Assembly: GCF_030384885.1 (NCBI RefSeq)
Contig: NZ_CP128613.1
Strand: one strand, 5' to 3'
Source of the DNA: Escherichia coli
Lineage (GTDB): Bacteria; Pseudomonadota; Gammaproteobacteria; Enterobacterales; Enterobacteriaceae
DNA length: 64,000 nt
Shown piece by piece: positions 51,578 to 62,177 of this stretch (position 1 is the first letter of the stretch; the number at the start of each line of letters is the position of its first letter). Both the position numbers and the translations under genes were made by a program. Below the pieces are notes generated by a model. The model had not been told where the DNA came from and made no database searches. It was given only the letters and a program-made list of their open reading frames with translations.

Positions 51578-51879
51578 GATTGTCTGCTCCCCTGTCTTGT
51601 TATGGGAGCAGTATTTCGTTGCTGGTCAGTTTGATAAAGGAATTAAAACGTCTTGTTAAGAACAAAGCGTTTTTAGAAAAAAACTGGCAATGGTTAGCGA
51701 GTTTACGCATTTTGCAGCTTGGGCGAATGTAGCATGCCGATTCACAAACCAGATCAGATGTTCGCTCTCCGGCAAATTATTGCCATTTTGTTACATCCAT
51801 TCCATATCTGTCGCTGGTTGATTGCCAGCGACGCGCCGTGATGCATGATAGGAGAATGAGATAATAAGAGAAGAAAAGT

Positions 51880-52509
51880 ATGATTAGGGTTGTGCTGGTG
51901 GATGACCATGTGGTGGTGCGCTCTGGCTTCGCACAATTACTCTCTCTGGAAGACGATCTGGAGGTCATTGGTCAGTACAGTTGTGCCGCGCAGGCATGGT
52001 CGGCATTAACTCATAATGACGTTAATGTTGCCGTCATTGATATCGCCATGCCGGACGAAAATGGCCTCAGTCTGCTTAAGCGTCTGCGTGCACAAAAACC
52101 GCAATTCCGCGCCATTATTCTTAGCATTTATGACACGCCAACCTTTGTACAAAGCGCTCTGGATGCTGGTGCCAGCGGCTATTTGACCAAACGCTGTGGG
52201 CCGGAAGAGTTAGTGCAGGCGGTGCGCTCGGTCGGGATGGGCGGGCATTATCTCTGCGCCGATGCAATTCGGGCTTTACGCGGCGGCGAGCAACCCGCCC
52301 AGGCGCTGGAAATTCTCACCCCACGAGAACGTGAAGTGTTTGATTTATTAGTCAAAGGCGACAGTGTAAAAGAGATCGCCTTTAAGCTCGAACTCAGCCA
52401 TAAAACGGTACATGTACATCGCGCCAACGTGCTGGGAAAACTGAACTGTCATAGCACCATTGAGCTGGTGCATTTTGCACTCAATCACCATCTGCTGGCG
52501 GGGCATTAA
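51880..52509 (+). CDS. NarL/FixJ-family response regulator, UhpA-like
   Basis: 209-aa ORF MIRVVLVDDHVVVRSGFAQLL... plus C-terminal LuxR helix-turn-helix (KTVHVHRANVLGKL); closely resembles UhpA as I recall it. Confidence 0.85.
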   Translation: MIRVVLVDDHVVVRSGFAQLLSLEDDLEVIGQYSCAAQAWSALTHNDVNVAVIDIAMPDENGLSLLKRLRAQKPQFRAIILSIYDTPTFVQSALDAGASGYLTKRCGPEELVQAVRSVGMGGHYLCADAIRALRGGEQPAQALEILTPREREVFDLLVKGDSVKEIAFKLELSHKTVHVHRANVLGKLNCHSTIELVHFALNHHLLAGH

Positions 52510-54050
52510 TGTCGCGTAACCTTCGTCATTGGGTGATTTCGCTGTTTATTGTGCTGGCCTGGGGAAGCGGCTGGCTGATGTTGTGGACGCTCAGCTTTTA
52601 TCTGACCAATAACGGTCAACAGGCAGTGTTATTTCTGCCGCACGGAGTTTACCTCGCTCTTCTTATTTTGCTCTCTCGCCGTTACTGGCCTGCGTTGGTG
52701 CTCCCCCCTTTGCTGATGATGTTCTGGCTGCACAGCGAGCAACTGTTGAACGGCTATCTCATGCTGGCAACGCCGGTTATTAGCCTGCTTCCTGCCATCC
52801 TTGCACAAAACGTCTGGCACCGTTTTCCACTTTACTGGCAGCGTCTGACGTTGCTGCTAGCCTCAGTAACAGCAGCTTCATTGCTGAATACAGCCATGCT
52901 AACCCCTTTTATGTCAGGCCCAATAATGCTGCCCGGTCTGACCTCATTTACCGGCGGCGTATTGTTGACGCCGTTTGTCTATCTCATCTTTGAGTTTCTG
53001 CGCCAGCAGCATCGCTATCAGCTTCTGAGACTCGATACGCATAATCCCCCCTTGCGAACCTCTTTAATCATCTGGTGTAGCCTATTTTTTATTATTGGTA
53101 TCGGCACCCAGATGGTGTTGTCGCCTGAAATCGAACGCCTGCTGCTGATCGTGGTATTTCTACCCAATGTGGTCATGGCCTGGAAATTTGGCTGGCAAGG
53201 TGGCGTACTCTCGGGGCTTTTGGGCAGCATGATGATCACTATTGCCCGCCAGATTGGCGTGGGCTTTAGTAACCTGGTGGAACTGGAGATTTTTCTCGCA
53301 ACCCAGGCATTGCTGGGAATTGGCCTGGGCATTGCCATCAGTCGCCAGCAACATCTGGCGCTAAACCTGCATCATTACCGTCAGCGACTGGAGGCAGAAC
53401 TGGCAGCACGGCGGGCATTGGCTGAAAAGCTGATCCACACCGAGGAAGACACGCGTAAAAGCCTGGCTCGCGAGCTGCACGACGAAATCGGTCAGAACAT
53501 TACCGCCATTCAGATCCAGTCGCAACTGGTGACGCGGGCACGCGATCCGGCGCAAGTTCATTCCGCAGCTAGCCAAATCAACGAACTCGCCCGCCGCATT
53601 CATCTCTCCACCCGCCAGTTGCTGCGCCAGTTGCGGCCACCCGCGCTTGATGAACTGACATTCCGCGAAGCATTACTTCATCTGATTAATGAATTTGCCT
53701 TTAGTGAACGCGGCATTCATTGCCAGTTTACCTATCAACTAACCACCACGCCAGAAAACGAAACGGTTCGCTTTACACTGTATCGGTTATTGCAGGAGTT
53801 ACTCAATAACGTCTGTAAACACGCCGAAGCCAGCGAAGTGACGATTATTCTGCGCCAGCAGGGAGAGATATTGCACCTGGAGGTCAGCGACAACGGTATA
53901 GGAATCGCCAGCGGGAAAATGACCGGATTTGGCATTCAGGGGATGCGTGAACGCGTCAGTGCCCTGGGCGGCGACTTAACGCTCGAAAAACATAACGGTA
54001 CGCGAGTAATTGTTAACCTGCCCACATTTTTGCAACAAATCGCCGGATAA
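52509..54050 (+). CDS. Sensor histidine kinase, UhpB-like
   Basis: 513-aa ORF: multi-TM N-terminal domain, H-box ELHDEIGQ (HisKA_3 type), C-terminal ATPase; start overlaps the regulator stop (TAATG). Confidence 0.85.
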   Translation: MSRNLRHWVISLFIVLAWGSGWLMLWTLSFYLTNNGQQAVLFLPHGVYLALLILLSRRYWPALVLPPLLMMFWLHSEQLLNGYLMLATPVISLLPAILAQNVWHRFPLYWQRLTLLLASVTAASLLNTAMLTPFMSGPIMLPGLTSFTGGVLLTPFVYLIFEFLRQQHRYQLLRLDTHNPPLRTSLIIWCSLFFIIGIGTQMVLSPEIERLLLIVVFLPNVVMAWKFGWQGGVLSGLLGSMMITIARQIGVGFSNLVELEIFLATQALLGIGLGIAISRQQHLALNLHHYRQRLEAELAARRALAEKLIHTEEDTRKSLARELHDEIGQNITAIQIQSQLVTRARDPAQVHSAASQINELARRIHLSTRQLLRQLRPPALDELTFREALLHLINEFAFSERGIHCQFTYQLTTTPENETVRFTLYRLLQELLNNVCKHAEASEVTIILRQQGEILHLEVSDNGIGIASGKMTGFGIQGMRERVSALGGDLTLEKHNGTRVIVNLPTFLQQIAG

Positions 54051-54122
54051 CCAGGAAAAAGTCTTAGGCATCCCGGATTTTCTCTCATCCTCTTTCACTT
54101 TCATTTTCATATAGTCAGCAAC

Positions 54123-55439
54123 ATGGAGACGACCATGCACGCGCGTTCAGCGAGAGAGATTAATCAATGCTACCGGACATTACGTCCGCGATTGCTGATG
54201 TGCATGATTATTGGCTACGCCGCATTTTATCTGACGCGAAAAAGCGTGAATTACGTCCTTCCGGCGCTGCAAACCGACCTCGGACTGGATAAAGGCGACA
54301 TTGGCCTGCTGGGTTCGCTGTTTTATCTCAGCTACGGATTGTCGAAATTTACCGCCGGACTGTGGCATGACAGCCACGGACAACGCGGTTTTATGGGCAT
54401 CGGCTTGTTCGCCACTGGGCTATTGAACGTGGTGTTTGCCTTTGGCGAATCACTTACGCTTCTGCTTGTGGTCTGGACACTGAACGGATTTTTTCAAGGC
54501 TGGGGGTGGCCACCGTGTGCCCGCTTACTGACCCATTGGTACTCCCGTAATGAACGTGGTTTCTGGTGGGGCTGCTGGAATATGTCGATCAACATTGGCG
54601 GAGCGATTATTCCGCTGATTAGCGCCTTTGCCGCCCACTGGTGGGGCTGGCAGGCCGCGATGCTGACACCGGGGATTATCAGCATGGCATTAGGGATCTG
54701 GTTAACGCTACAGCTTAAAGGCACACCCCAGGAAGAGGGATTACCGACGGTGGGTCAGTGGCGTCACGATCCGCTGGAATTACGTCAGGAACAACAAAGT
54801 CCGCCGATGGGTCTGTGGCAAATGTTGCGCACCACAATGCTGCAAAATCCGATGATCTGGCTGCTGGGTGTCTCTTATGTACTGGTTTATGTGATCCGGA
54901 TTGCGTTAAACGACTGGGGCAATATCTGGCTGACGGAAAGCCACGGCGTCAACCTACTCAGCGCCAACGCCACGGTAATGCTGTTTGAAGTGGGCGGCTT
55001 ACTCGGCGCGTTATTTGCCGGATGGGGTTCGGATTTGCTGTTTAGCGGGCAGCGAGCCCCCATGATTTTGCTGTTTACCCTTGGGTTGATGGTTTCGGTC
55101 GCTGCACTCTGGTTGGCACCGGTTCATCACTATGCCCTTCTGGCTGTGTGCTTTTTTACTGTGGGCTTTTTTGTCTTTGGCCCGCAAATGCTGATTGGAC
55201 TTGCGGCAGTGGAATGTGGACACAAAGCTGCGGCGGGTTCAATCACCGGATTTCTCGGTCTGTTCGCCTATCTCGGTGCGGCGCTGGCAGGCTGGCCGTT
55301 GTCGCTGGTTATCGAACGCTACGGCTGGTCGGGAATGTTCAGTTTACTCTCGGTCGCCGCAGTACTTATGGGTTTACTGCTGATGCCGTTACTGATGGCG
55401 GGCATCACCACCACTCACGCTCGAAGGATAAAACAATGA
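54123..55439 (+). CDS. MFS organophosphate:phosphate antiporter-family protein, UhpC-like
   Basis: 438-aa 12-TM-like ORF; follows the UhpA/UhpB-like pair in uhpABC order. Confidence 0.8.
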   Translation: METTMHARSAREINQCYRTLRPRLLMCMIIGYAAFYLTRKSVNYVLPALQTDLGLDKGDIGLLGSLFYLSYGLSKFTAGLWHDSHGQRGFMGIGLFATGLLNVVFAFGESLTLLLVVWTLNGFFQGWGWPPCARLLTHWYSRNERGFWWGCWNMSINIGGAIIPLISAFAAHWWGWQAAMLTPGIISMALGIWLTLQLKGTPQEEGLPTVGQWRHDPLELRQEQQSPPMGLWQMLRTTMLQNPMIWLLGVSYVLVYVIRIALNDWGNIWLTESHGVNLLSANATVMLFEVGGLLGALFAGWGSDLLFSGQRAPMILLFTLGLMVSVAALWLAPVHHYALLAVCFFTVGFFVFGPQMLIGLAAVECGHKAAAGSITGFLGLFAYLGAALAGWPLSLVIERYGWSGMFSLLSVAAVLMGLLLMPLLMAGITTTHARRIKQ

Positions 55440-56467
55440 AAATGCCCCTTACCTCTACTCTGATTGCTTCTGCCGTTGCGCTGGCAACCTTAACGGGTGC
55501 CGCACAAGCGAAAGGTCGACTGGTGGTCTATTGCAGCGCCACTAATGAAATGTGTGAGACCGAAACCAAAGCGTTTGGCGAGAAATATGATGTGAAAACC
55601 TCGTTTATCCGCAACGGCTCCGGTAGCACCCTGGCAAAAGTCGATGCTGAAAAGAAAAACCCACAGGCTGACGTCTGGTACGGCGGCACCTTAGACCCGC
55701 AGTCGCAGGCCGGCGAGATGGGCCTGTTACAGGCATATAAATCGCCTAACCTTGAACAGATCATGGAAAAATTCCGCGATCCGGCAAAAGTGAAAGGAAA
55801 CCTTTCCTCCGCCGTTTATGTGGGGATCCTCGGGTTTGGCGTCAACACAGAGCGTCTGAAAGAGAAAAACCTGCCTGTGCCGAAGTGCTGGAAAGATCTC
55901 ACCAAACCTGAATATAAAGGCGAAATTCAGATTGCCGATCCACAAAGTTCCGGTACCGCCTACACCGCGCTGGCTACCTTTGCGCAGCTGTGGGGGGAAG
56001 ATCAGGCCTTTGATTATCTAAAACAACTGAACGCCAACGTCTCCCAGTACACCAAATCAGGCATAGCCCCGGCACGTAACGCCGCCCGTGGCGAAACGGC
56101 GATTGGTATTGGCTTCCTGCATGACTACTCGCTGGAAAAAGAACAGGGCGCGCCGCTGGAGTTGATTTCCCCGTGTGAAGGTACGGGCTACGAAATTGGC
56201 GGCGTCAGCATTCTGAAAGGCGCGCGCAACCTCGACAACGCCAAACTGTTTGTGGACTGGGTATTATCAAAAGAAGCTCAGGAACTGGCGTGGAAGAAAG
56301 GGAAGTCTTATCAGATCCTGACCAATACCACCGCCGAAACGTCGCCAAATTCGCTGAAGCTCGACGACCTGAAATTAATCAACTACGACATGGATAAATA
56401 CGGTTCAACTGATGTTCGTAAGGCATTAATTAATAAATGGGTCAGCGAAGTGAAGATGGGTAAATAA
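55436..56467 (+). CDS. afuA: ABC transporter periplasmic substrate-binding protein (AfuA/FbpA family)
   Basis: 343 aa from ATG 55436 (ATGA overlap with upstream stop); signal MKMPLTSTLIASAVALATLTGAAQA; the track ORF 55148.. is an upstream over-extension. Confidence 0.85.
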   Translation: MKMPLTSTLIASAVALATLTGAAQAKGRLVVYCSATNEMCETETKAFGEKYDVKTSFIRNGSGSTLAKVDAEKKNPQADVWYGGTLDPQSQAGEMGLLQAYKSPNLEQIMEKFRDPAKVKGNLSSAVYVGILGFGVNTERLKEKNLPVPKCWKDLTKPEYKGEIQIADPQSSGTAYTALATFAQLWGEDQAFDYLKQLNANVSQYTKSGIAPARNAARGETAIGIGFLHDYSLEKEQGAPLELISPCEGTGYEIGGVSILKGARNLDNAKLFVDWVLSKEAQELAWKKGKSYQILTNTTAETSPNSLKLDDLKLINYDMDKYGSTDVRKALINKWVSEVKMGK

Positions 56468-56535
56468 ACCCGCATTGCGTGCACTTGCCGGGTGCAGCAC
56501 AGACGCCTGCCCCGGCCAACCATACCGGAACTGCT

Positions 56536-58614
56536 ATGTCACAGACACTTGCACTCCATCCCGCGAAAAAGCGGGATGCGATTTTCCTTTGGGTTTTGCT
56601 GGGCTGGCTGGCATTTATCCTGTTGCCGAGCTGGAGTCTCGATTATGGTCTGCTGGAGTCCACGAGTGATGAGATCCTCGAGGCGTACAGCTGGTCGCAT
56701 TTTAATATCAGCTGGCTGTGGTATTTACTCCCGAGTTTGCTGCTGGTTCGCCCGTTTAATGAGGCCAAACGCGAGCAGCGTAGCCGTCATTATTTTGATG
56801 CAGGCTGGGCATTGCTTTGTATAGCGTTTATGGTCATCAGTGCCACCATCGTTGGCCGCGGTCTAGGCTACGCCGCCATCGTGCTGTTTATCGAATTAAG
56901 CGCGATAATGACGCTGGCCTTAACCCGCCTCGAATGGCTGGGTGGCGACCGCTTTGTGATCGGCTCGCTGATTGCGATTGTGGCGCTGATTGGCATTTTT
57001 ATCGTCTGGCCGAGCATCGCCATTTTTATCCCGATGTTCACCAACGACGCGGGAGGGTTCGCCCCACTGGCGTTTATGAATGTGCTCTCGCAGGCACATA
57101 TTGTTCAGGTGATCGTCAACTCCATCGTCTTATCGATAGCGGTGGGTATTGGCTGTACTTTCTTCGGTCTGGTGCTGGCGATATATACCACGCGCATCGC
57201 TAAACGCAGCGCAGTAATCGGCCGCATCTTTTCCATTCTGCCAATTGTCACGCCACCGTTTGTGGTCGGCTTAGGCGTTACGCTCATGATGGGGCGCTCC
57301 GGCTACATAACGGAATTTATGGTGGAGTGGTTTGGGCTGACCAACACCAACTGGCTGTATGGTTTTACCGGGATCTGGCTGGCACAGGTCCTGGCATTTA
57401 CGCCAATGGCTTTTATGATCCTCGATGGGGCCATTAAAACCATTCATCCCTCGCTGGAAGAAGCCTCCTACACCCTGCGCGCCAGCCGCTGGCAAACCTT
57501 TAACGGTGTGTTTGTGCCGTTGTTAAAGCCCGCGCTTGCCAATGCCTTTTTAATCGTCGTGGTACAGTCACTGGCTGACTTCAGTAACCCGCTGGTGCTT
57601 GGCGGCAACTTCGACGTACTGGCGACGCAAATTTACTTCTACATTACCGGCTCGCAGCTGGATTATCAGGCCGCCAGCACCCTTGGCGCTTTCCTGCTGC
57701 TGTTCTCGCTACTGGTGTTCTGCGTCCAGTATATGTGGATTGGTAAACGCTCTTACGTCACGGTTTCCGGAAAGTCCTACCGCGGCGATGTCCAGCCACT
57801 ACCGGTCACCCTGGTGTGGAGCGTGGTCGCCATACTTGCGATATGGATTGCCTTTAACGCCCTGCTCTATGGCAGCATTTTCTACGGCAGCTTCACCGTG
57901 AACTGGGGCGTAGACTACACCCTAACGCTGGATAACTTTATCAAGTTATTTGGTCAGGGGATGAGCGACGGCGCATGGCCTTCACTGTTAGATACCTTGC
58001 TCTACGCCGGGATTGCCGCACCCATTACCGCTATTTTTGGCCTGCTCATCGCCTGGGTGGTGGTGCGCCAACAATTCAAAGGCAAAAAGACCATCGAGTT
58101 CACCACCATGTTGTGCTTTGCCGTACCGGGTACAGTGGCGGGTGTCTCGTATATTCTTGCCTTTAATAGCGCCCCAGTCTATCTCACCGGAACGGCAGCA
58201 ATTGTGATTATCTCGATGGTGATGCGCAACGTTCCGGTGGGTATTCGCGCCGGGATTGCAGGTCTGGGGCAGATCGACAAATCGCTGGATGAAGCCTCAC
58301 TTAGCCTGCGTGCGGGTTCCCTGCGAACCATTACGCACATTTTACTGCCGTTGTTACGCCCAGCTATTCTCTCGGCCCTGATTTACAGCTTTGTGCGGGC
58401 TATCACGACGGTCAGCGCCATCGTCTTTCTCGTCACGCCGGACACACGCGTGGCAACCGCCTACATCCTTAACCGCGTAGAAGACGGCGAATATGGCGTA
58501 GCCATCGCCTACGGTTCGATTCTGATCGTGGTGATGCTGGCGATTATTTTCCTCTTTGACTGGCTGATCGGTGAAGCACGTATTTCCCGTTCTAAAGCCA
58601 AAAACCAGGCGTAA
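56536..58614 (+). CDS. afuB: ABC transporter fused permease (AfuB/FbpB family)
   Basis: 692 aa from ATG 56536 (track's GTG at 56479 is possible); two tandem permease domains. Confidence 0.85.
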
Positions 58615-58625
58615 TGGAGCGCACT

Positions 58626-59672
58626 ATGAGTCAGAAAAATTTTGTGGAACTGCGCAACGTCACTAAACGATTCGGCAGTAATACGGTTATCGACAATATC
58701 AATCTCACCATCCCACAAGGGCAAATGGTGACGCTGCTCGGTCCTTCCGGATGCGGCAAAACCACCATTCTGCGTCTGGTTGCCGGGCTGGAAAAACCGA
58801 GCGAAGGGCAAATTTTTATAGATGGCGAAGATGTCACGCATCGTTCCATTCAGCAACGCGATATCTGCATGGTGTTTCAGTCATACGCTCTGTTCCCACA
58901 TATGTCGCTGGGCGAAAACGTTGGCTATGGGTTGAAAATGCTTGGCGTGTCGCGTAGTGAAGTGAAGCAGCGGGTGAAAGATGCGCTAGCAATGGTGGAT
59001 CTGGAAGGATTCGAAGACCGCTATGTCGACCAGATTTCCGGTGGTCAGCAACAGCGTGTGGCTCTGGCCCGTGCGTTGATCCTTAAGCCTAAAGTGCTGC
59101 TGTTTGATGAGCCGTTAAGTAACCTCGATGCCAACCTGCGTCGCAGCATGCGCGATAAAATCCGCGAGCTGCAAAAGCAATTTAACATCACTTCGCTCTA
59201 TGTGACTCACGATCAAAGTGAAGCTTTCGCGGTGTCCGACACCGTGTTGGTGATGAATAAAGGTCACATCATGCAAATTGGCTCGCCGCAGGATCTCTAT
59301 CGTCAGCCCGCCTCCCGCTTTATGGCAAGTTTTATGGGCGACGCCAACCTGTTCCCGGCGAACTTTAGCGAAGAGTATGTCGATATCTACGGTTATCGCC
59401 TGCCGCGCGCGGCGCATTTCCCGGCGCAAGGTAGCGGCACCGTCGGCGTTCGCCCGGAAGCCATCACCTTAAGCAATCACGGCGAAGAGAGTCAGCGTTG
59501 TGTTATTCGCCATGTCGCCTACATGGGGCCGCAGTACGAAGTGACCGTAGAATGGCATGGTCAGGAGATTTTATTGCAAGTCAACGCCACCCGTTTACAG
59601 CCCGATATTGGTGAACACTATTACCTCGAAATCCATCCTTACGGGATGTTTGTTTTAGCGGATGCGGCATAA
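58626..59672 (+). CDS. afuC: ABC transporter ATP-binding protein (AfuC/FbpC family)
   Basis: 348 aa from ATG 58626, [16 protein letters not shown]...; Walker [10 protein letters not shown], signature [15 protein letters not shown]. Confidence 0.9.
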
Positions 59673-59754
59673 AAATAGCACATAAACGGTCCCAACCTGT
59701 CTTGAGAGACCGTTCACCTGTTTAGACGTCGGACAACAATTATTCTCCGGTGTT

Positions 59755-59807
59755 ATATACTATAGGGGGGTATGCATTGACATATGGCATACCCCCCTAT
59801 AGTATAT
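59755..59807 (+). promoter_or_regulatory. frmRAB promoter embedded in a perfect 21-11-21 inverted repeat (candidate FrmR operator)
   Basis: ATATACTATAGGGGGGTATGC - attgacatatg - GCATACCCCCCTATAGTATAT; TTGACA at 59777-59782 in the spacer, TAGTAT 17 bp downstream in the right arm, frmR ATG at 59832. Confidence 0.8.
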
Positions 59808-59831
59808 TGCGTGCAGATGATGAGGTGCGAA

Positions 59832-60107
59832 ATGCCCAGTACTCCGGAAGAGAAGAAAAAGGTCCTTACTCGAGTTCGTCGTATTCGGGGGCAAATTGAT
59901 GCTCTGGAACGGTCGCTGGAGGGTGATGCCGAATGCCGTGCCATACTCCAACAGATCGCTGCCGTTCGGGGCGCGGCTAACGGGCTGATGGCAGAAGTGC
60001 TTGAAAGCCATATCCGGGAAACGTTTGACCGAAATGACTGCTACAGCCGCGAAGTCAGCCAATCCGTTGACGACACTATTGAACTGGTTCGTGCCTATCT
60101 TAAATAG
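59832..60107 (+). CDS. frmR: Formaldehyde-responsive repressor FrmR (RcnR/CsoR family)
   Basis: 91 aa from ATG 59832, [35 protein letters not shown]... Confidence 0.93.
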
Positions 60108-60111
60108 CTGA

Positions 60112-61251
<1,140 letters not shown>

Positions 61252-61343: not shown

Positions 61344-62177
61344 ATGGAACTCATTGAAAAACATGCCAGCTTTGGCGGCTGGCAAAATGTGTATCGGCAT
61401 TATTCCCAATCACTGAAATGTGAAATGAATGTCGGCGTCTATCTCCCACCAAAAGCCGGGAATGAAAAATTGCCGGTACTGTACTGGCTTTCGGGCCTGA
61501 CCTGTAACGAGCAGAATTTCATTACTAAATCGGGGATGCAACGTTACGCGGCTGAGCACAACATTATTGTTGTTGCGCCAGACACCAGTCCGCGAGGCAG
61601 TCATGTCGCAGATGCCGACCGTTACGATCTCGGGCAAGGTGCCGGGTTTTACCTGAACGCAACGCAAGCGCCGTGGAATGAACATTACAAAATGTATGAT
61701 TATATCCACAACGAGTTGCCGGATTTAGTGATGCAACATTTTCCGGCAACGACCAGAAAGTCTATCTCAGGTCATTCTATGGGCGGGCTGGGCGCGCTGG
61801 TGCTGGCGTTACGTAACCCAGATGAATATGTCAGCGTCTCGGCGTTTTCGCCCATTGTCTCCCCATCGCAAGTACCGTGGGGACAGCAAGCCTTTGCCGC
61901 ATATCTTGGTGAAAATAAAGATGCCTGGTTGGATTACGATCCGGTTAGCCTTATTTCACAAGGTCAACGCGTTGCGGAAATCATGGTTGATCAAGGATTG
62001 AGTGATGATTTTTACGCAGAACAGCTGCGGACTCCAAATCTTGAAAAGATCTGCCAGGAGATGAATATCAAAACGTTAATCCGTTATCACGAGGGTTATG
62101 ATCACAGCTATTATTTTGTCTCCAGTTTTATTGGCGAGCATATTGCCTACCACGCCAATAAACTGAATATGCGTTGA
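61344..62177 (+). CDS. frmB: S-formylglutathione hydrolase
   Basis: 277-aa ORF with esterase motif GHSMGG. Confidence 0.94.
   Translation: MELIEKHASFGGWQNVYRHYSQSLKCEMNVGVYLPPKAGNEKLPVLYWLSGLTCNEQNFITKSGMQRYAAEHNIIVVAPDTSPRGSHVADADRYDLGQGAGFYLNATQAPWNEHYKMYDYIHNELPDLVMQHFPATTRKSISGHSMGGLGALVLALRNPDEYVSVSAFSPIVSPSQVPWGQQAFAAYLGENKDAWLDYDPVSLISQGQRVAEIMVDQGLSDDFYAEQLRTPNLEKICQEMNIKTLIRYHEGYDHSYYFVSSFIGEHIAYHANKLNMR

Follow-up and report, generated by a model that had tools for sequence, protein, structure and literature searches.

The question raised by this locus is why, in the window (the whole stretch of 64,000 nucleotides of Escherichia coli DNA that was analysed), a long and perfect palindrome occupies the short interval between a strain-variable transporter gene and frmR. 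It is nearly certain that the repeat is the operator-promoter (Pfrm) of the frmRAB formaldehyde-detoxification operon, with one 17-bp FrmR site in each arm. Earlier publications already cover the element, the FrmR sites in it, the effect of formaldehyde on it and its application in biosensors. Thus, the inverted repeat had been read correctly as a FrmR operator-promoter from sequence alone, as supported by the description of the same repeat at Pfrm (Denby et al. 2016) and by the identity of frmR, and the value of recovering an experimentally validated element in this way is one of calibration. The present analysis adds that the mapped transcription start favours TAGTAT as the -10 element, that the proximal site occurs widely and is probably the ancestral one, that the hairpin is not conserved, and that K-12 lacks perfect arms. 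The features on which the argument rests are the following.

51616-59739: strain-variable segment of 8.1 kb, including the afuABC/fbpABC-like transporter (blastn against K-12).
58614-59672, + strand: fbpC/afuC, ferric ABC transporter ATPase, last gene of the variable segment (NF008513, 698 bits, cutoff 496).
59730-59754, + strand: block conserved upstream of the repeat, CGGAYAA..TTATTCTCYnnTGTT (alignment at the frmR ATG).
59755-59775: left arm of the inverted repeat, 21 nt, ATATACTATAGGGGGGTATGC.
59757-59773: distal FrmR type I core, ATAC-TATAGGGGG-GTAT, -56 to -40 from the mapped start (pattern match and published site definition).
59767, + strand: putative minor start P2, in the G6 tract of the left arm (K-12 start 379170(-), 6 reads, 65-nt leader; Kim et al. 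2012).
59776-59786, + strand: asymmetric spacer between the arms, 11 bp, ATTGACATATG.
59777-59782, + strand: -35 hexamer TTGACA, -36 to -31 (promoter scan).
59787-59807: right arm of the inverted repeat, 21 nt, GCATACCCCCCTATAGTATAT.
59789-59805: proximal FrmR type I core, ATAC-CCCCCTATA-GTAT, -24 to -8 from the mapped start (pattern match and published site definition).
59798-59803, + strand: alternative -10 hexamer TATAGT, overlapping TAGTAT and chosen by Shimada et al. (2014).
59800-59805, + strand: -10 hexamer TAGTAT, -13 to -8 (promoter scan).
59813, + strand: main start P1, by homology with the K-12 start 379124(-), sequence ...CCCCCCTATAGTATATTGCATG, 19-nt leader.
59832-60107, + strand: frmR, 91 aa (NF008464, 189.2 bits, cutoff 133).
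60142-61251, + strand: frmA, S-(hydroxymethyl)glutathione dehydrogenase (TIGR02818, 741 bits).
61344-62177, + strand: frmB/fghA, S-formylglutathione hydrolase (TIGR02821, 397 bits).

The gene downstream of the repeat encodes FrmR, a member of the formaldehyde-sensing subgroup of the CsoR/RcnR family (DUF156). Its product scores just 68 bits against the RcnR profile, for which the cutoff is 138, and aligns over its full length with the E. coli FrmR of PDB entry 5LBM. Direct reading of the translation reveals Pro2 and Cys35, the pair joined by the methylene bridge, together with His60, the roles of these residues being those described by Denby et al. (2016; PMC5146963) and Osman et al. (2016). 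Moreover, frmA and frmB follow frmR on the same strand, which is the operon arrangement that identifies FrmR. On the other side of the repeat, matching genomes annotate the upstream gene as fbpC, and a terminator-like hairpin with a T-rich tail (CATCCTTACGGGATG TTTGTTTTAG, 59634-59658) is found within the last codons of this gene, before its stop codon at 59670-59672.

The two arms of the repeat are complementary at every one of their 21 positions and are separated by 11 bp, and they contain a G6 tract at 59765-59770 and a C6 tract at 59792-59797, in exact agreement with the sequence-only reading. A search of the entire 64-kb window for inverted repeats with arms of 14 nt or longer within 60 nt returned this one alone, and the number of 21-nt-arm repeats expected by chance is about 9e-7 (64,000 positions x 61 spacings x 4^-21). 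Folded as single-stranded DNA, the repeat reaches -21.4 kcal/mol, against -7.9 +/- 2.2 for shuffled sequences (z = -6.2). The arms being identical, the direction of the palindrome is set by the 11-bp spacer alone. Within this spacer, the G at position 59786 is a near-private variant, most E. coli having A. This A-to-G change creates an ATG that is in frame with frmR and lies upstream of the mapped transcription start. Because of it, the listing of open reading frames contains a spurious frame of 107 aa beginning at 59784, inside the spacer of the palindrome, which was rejected as an artefact.

The pattern ATAC-N9-GTAT, which is the FrmR site as defined by Denby et al. (2016; PMC5146963) and in PMC11127321, has exactly two matches in the 64-kb window, one in each arm. 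About three turns of the helix (32 bp) separate the centres of the two sites, with a gap of 15 bp between the cores. Type I operators of the CsoR/RcnR family are defined by a G/C tract of 3-8 bp (Denby et al. 2016), a range that includes the G6 and C6 tracts; both cores are flanked by ATAC...GTAT, and the repeat overlaps the promoter of the operon in which the regulator is encoded. The pattern recognised in the arms by the sequence-only reading as that of the RcnR/CsoR family is therefore right as a family resemblance, but the published core, ATAC-N9-GTAT, is similar rather than identical to the TACT-G6-N-AGTA of RcnR.

The functional evidence for FrmR binding, release by formaldehyde, in vitro repression and the transcription start comes from the literature and concerns the K-12 allele, and the present analysis contributes the anatomy of the sequence, the identities of the genes and the conservation of the layout of two sites and a -35 element. 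Denby et al. (2016; PMC5146963) described the large inverted repeat at E. coli Pfrm as a tandem of type I FrmR sites. FrmR binds K-12 Pfrm specifically (Kd of about 220 nM; control DNA, about 3600 nM), formaldehyde abolishes this binding, and FrmR-dependent repression of Pfrm in vitro is relieved by formaldehyde (PMC5146963). Failure of FrmR to bind the fragment, which had been named as an outcome that would count against the proposal, is thus answered for the K-12 allele (Denby et al. 2016, PMC5146963), and the binding experiment with and without formaldehyde that had been suggested is already published for that allele, formaldehyde releasing FrmR (PMC5146963). The suggested mutagenesis of the promoter is also in print, since Rohlhill et al. 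(2017), according to reviews, subjected Pfrm to mutagenesis with sort-seq. Between the window and the K-12 fragment used in the published experiments, 4 of 95 positions differ, all of them outside the cores, the -35 and the -10, and we infer that the K-12 results carry over to the window allele. Our literature search for a base-resolution footprint or a structure of FrmR on the double site found neither.

The ATAC-N9-GTAT motif serves as a portable FrmR operator (PMC11127321). In the same study, a truncated PfrmR that retained both sites lost repression, so the two cores may be insufficient for repression and the flanking DNA may contribute to it. Since removal of the DNA upstream of the FrmR sites abolished repression (PMC11127321), the conserved block of 25 bp at 59730-59754 may contribute to the action of FrmR.

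TTGACA-17-TAGTAT, the promoter embedded in the palindrome, matches the consensus at 10 of 12 positions and is the single promoter-like site found by the promoter scan in 59300-60300, its spacing of 17 bp falling within the 16-18 bp of sigma-70 promoters. The earlier placement of TTGACA in the spacer and of TAGTAT, 17 bp further on, in the right arm agrees with these coordinates. The -10 assignment varies by source. In the spacer between frmR and yaiO, Shimada et al. (2014) detected a SELEX peak of the RpoD holoenzyme, which they assigned to TTGACA-15-TATAGT. A K-12 transcription start at 379124(-) of NC_000913.2, supported by 8 reads (leader of 19 nt; 51-mer with ...TATAGTATATTGCATG at its end), has been mapped (Kim et al. 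2012, Table S1, PMC3415461) and corresponds to 59813, a placement that rests on 8 reads obtained under uninduced conditions in K-12 rather than in the strain of the window. A start at 59813 leaves a discriminator of 7 nt after TAGTAT and one of 9 nt after TATAGT, and because of this 7-nt discriminator TTGACA-17-TAGTAT is favoured over the TATAGT reading. A start outside the predicted promoter would have spoken against the sequence-only reading, and the published K-12 start falls 7 nt past TAGTAT. The centre of the repeat lies at -32 from the mapped start; Denby et al. (2016) gave -29, counted from a start that was predicted and not measured (PMC5146963). Cappable-seq supplements were also consulted for a Pfrm start and yielded nothing.

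The putative P2 start at 59767 is accompanied by a conserved TGtTATATA at 59751-59759, which could be its extended -10. A genuine P2 would have the distal FrmR site directly on its promoter, and its transcript would begin with a 9-bp hairpin. In K-12, a start with 2 reads lies 18 nt upstream of frmA in the frmR-frmA spacer (window position 60124; Kim et al. 2012, PMC3415461), and an internal promoter between frmR and frmA was listed by Shimada et al. (2014), which suggests that frmAB transcription is partly independent of FrmR, from starts in this spacer.

In the proposed mechanism, FrmR tetramers would occupy both sites in the absence of formaldehyde and keep the sigma-70 RNA polymerase off the promoter. 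Occupancy of the distal site would span -56 to -40, and that of the proximal site -24 to -8, including the -10 element. The idea of a bound repressor covering both promoter elements holds for the -10, which lies within the proximal core, but not in the strict sense for the -35, which lies between the cores and inside neither; two FrmR tetramers could nevertheless block both hexamers sterically. Formaldehyde then cross-links Pro2 to Cys35 in FrmR and causes the repressor to leave, and its departure allows transcription of frmR-frmA-frmB from about 59813.

The distribution of the two sites was followed in a comparative set of 80 frmR loci from other species. Most of the 80 loci, from gamma-, beta- and alpha-proteobacteria, have the proximal ATAC-N9-GTAT, overlapping TATAGTAT, upstream of frmR, and judging from this distribution the proximal site is probably ancestral. 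A second site, 32-35 bp upstream, was present in all loci examined from Enterobacterales, Aeromonas and Deefgea, the mirror-image distal copy being characteristic of Enterobacterales and relatives, and the distance between sites is 40 bp in loci of the Citrobacter/Klebsiella type. In all two-site loci, TTGAY follows the distal site after 4 bp. Loci with a spacing of 34 bp have the promoter TTGACN-17-TATAGT, and the spacer in Escherichia is 2 bp shorter, which accounts for the -10 ambiguity in this genus. In Erwinia endophytica (locus L022, positions 1420-1460), both FrmR sites are direct and not inverted (ATACTGGGATATAGTAT and ATACTGGTGTATAGTAT), so the conserved feature is a pair of pseudo-symmetric sites about three helical turns apart and not a hairpin. 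In Pasteurellaceae and Deefgea (loci L028, L029 and L033-L035), the tract of the proximal site is G, not C, on the top strand; tract polarity thus appears to be unconstrained, which is what recognition of the tract by its shape would predict.

Of 5,426 complete E. coli genomes, 5,360 contain the promoter stretch of 95 bp. The exact version of the window occurs in just one other genome, because of the G at 59786. The majority 53-mer, with perfect arms, accounts for 3,555 E. coli records, and the K-12 variant, in which a single arm mismatch lies immediately outside the core, for 1,033; perfect arms are found in about two thirds of E. coli genomes, and the left arm is perfect in 70 of 82 metagenome contigs. 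Both arms carry the same tract, GGGGGG in Escherichia and GTGGAG in the Edwardsiella/Enterobacter/Morganella group. Efficient gene conversion as a process keeping the arms identical was considered and rejected: the K-12 mismatch is maintained in 1,033 records, and 1-3 uncompensated differences are seen in E. albertii and at several other loci, so there is no strong homogenisation of the arms. In strains of the yaiO type, a poly-C tract after GATTAG in the yaiO-frmR spacer, preceded by a GC-rich hairpin (CCGCCCGCTATCCGGGGCGG), varies from 6 to 10 C among 4 strains (L001:2440-2470; L002, L004, L005). An apparently plasmid-borne frm copy (L172, NZ_CP195335.1, 'plasmid unnamed2', 42.9 kb) was set aside, as it looks like a linear chromosomal fragment; it carries tauA-yaiS-yaiP-yaiO-frmR and ends within frmR.

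The position of the repeat relative to the strain-variable segment can be stated precisely. The window is collinear with K-12 (379500-429000) up to 51615 and again from 59740 (blastn), and K-12 has yaiO-yaiX::IS2-yaiP-ykiC-yaiS in place of 51616-59739. Among 5,415 E. coli genomes, the match begins at 59740 in 4,965, and just 450 match upstream of that point. The stop codon of fbpC/afuC ends at 59672 and the repeat begins 82 bp later, close to the distance of about 80 bp given by the sequence-only reading; its further statement that the repeat marks the edge of the variable segment needs correction, because the edge is at 59739/59740, 15 bp upstream. The 25-bp block at 59730-59754 is kept in all three Escherichia contexts, namely fbpC, yaiO and a third one in E. 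albertii and cryptic clades (L007, L009, L010). Weaker conservation reaches back to about 59730, and the repeat sits 15-25 bp inside the conserved block, so it is not itself the edge. The element accompanies frmR whatever lies upstream, both in the three Escherichia contexts and in other genera.

Several other explanations of the repeat were weighed against the operator-promoter. A hairpin, in RNA or as cruciform DNA, acting for example as a terminator or insulator for the upstream afuABC/yaiO genes, might be suspected from the very stable 21-bp stem 82 bp past fbpC, but this explanation is almost certainly wrong. The stem is followed by TGCGTGCAG, with no T-run, and the terminator scan makes no call, so an intrinsic terminator, which combines a stem and a T-run, was rejected. 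The main start is downstream of the stem, and the frmR mRNA therefore lacks it. No Rfam family matches: a known RNA family was discarded because the only hits were chance matches to miRNA hairpins, which scored 19-20 bits where the gathering thresholds are 73-100. Moreover, the Erwinia locus (L022) keeps the sites as direct copies, with loss of hairpin potential, and the K-12 clade tolerates an arm mismatch. We give as little credence to the repeat being the end of a mobile element or a recombination site that created the adjoining variable junction. The variable segment does stop 15 bp upstream, but the repeat belongs to the conserved sequence beyond the junction, is a single copy in all three upstream contexts and goes with frmR in other genera, and there is no flanking recombinase or transposase gene in the window. 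More credible, although still unlikely, is that a single FrmR tetramer or a wrapped higher-order complex bridges both sites through the two faces of the disc and loops or wraps the 32 bp with the -35. Denby et al. (2016; PMC5146963) raised bridging as a possibility, the distance between centres greatly exceeding that in the rcnR-rcnA operator, and wrapping of the flanks would fit both the loss of repression on upstream truncation (PMC11127321) and the conserved 25-bp upstream block. However, Salmonella FrmR places two tetramers even on a 33-bp DNA with a single tract (Osman et al.), and the range of spacings among loci, from 32 to 40 bp, would be poorly tolerated by a rigid bridge of one tetramer.

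One strain bears on whether the palindrome could be a promoter that inverts without a recombinase, a flip of the spacer silencing frmRAB and firing antisense into the upstream gene. In FJ_Ec_21 (NZ_CP143627.1, L002:3001-3053), the centre of the palindrome is inverted with respect to the K-12 allele, a singleton among 5,426 genomes; TTGACA-17-TAGTAT aims into the 3' end of yaiO, away from frmR, and only ATGTCA-18-TATATT faces frmR. This is exactly the inversion that an invertible promoter would undergo, but it occurs in 1 of 5,426 genomes, an assembly artefact could account for it, and no metagenome contig has the 31-mer of the inverted state, whereas 83 show the normal state, so that recurrent inversion was rejected and such a switch is highly improbable. 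A phase-variation switch, for which both orientations and an adjacent recombinase would be expected, was likewise rejected, the flanking genes being fbpC and frmR. The state of FJ_Ec_21 is most likely a rare repeat-mediated inversion or an assembly artefact, and in either case it shows that promoter direction depends on the spacer only. That template-switching during replication occasionally flips the spacer, making a recombinase-free switch of low frequency with FJ_Ec_21 as a natural example, is very doubtful; if true, the flip would silence frmRAB and make an equally good antisense promoter into the upstream gene.

With the operator-promoter as the preferred interpretation, the repeat can be compared with the systems already described. 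The K-12 Pfrm (Denby et al. 2016, Sci Rep 6:38879, Fig. 6a) represents the same locus, with cores, -35 and -10 identical to those of the window. However, its arms match at 20 of 21 positions, with GAATAC where the window has GCATAC, it has A at the spacer position equivalent to 59786 (G in the window), and yaiO lies upstream instead of fbpC. The E. coli RcnR operator of rcnR-rcnA (Iwig and Chivers 2009, cited through Denby et al. 2016) has the form TACT-G6-N-AGTA, in contrast with the ATAC/GTAT flanks of the window. Its site centres are 19 bp apart with both tetramers on one face, whereas those of the window are 32 bp apart. The FrmR sites of the window differ from the RcnR operator in that one site mirrors the other and that the tract does not lie at the centre of N9; the effector is formaldehyde for FrmR and Ni/Co for RcnR. 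In Salmonella Typhimurium, the frmRA operator upstream of frmR has a C6 tract with T/A-rich flanks in inverted repeat; formaldehyde weakens the binding of FrmR, and mutation of one operator flank abolishes it (Osman et al. 2015, 2016). This operator is described as a single C6 site, although a 33-bp probe still binds two tetramers (Osman et al. 2015, 2016). Salmonella FrmR is much more divergent, scoring 90 bits against 186 for the E. coli protein, and the Salmonella operon lacks frmB.
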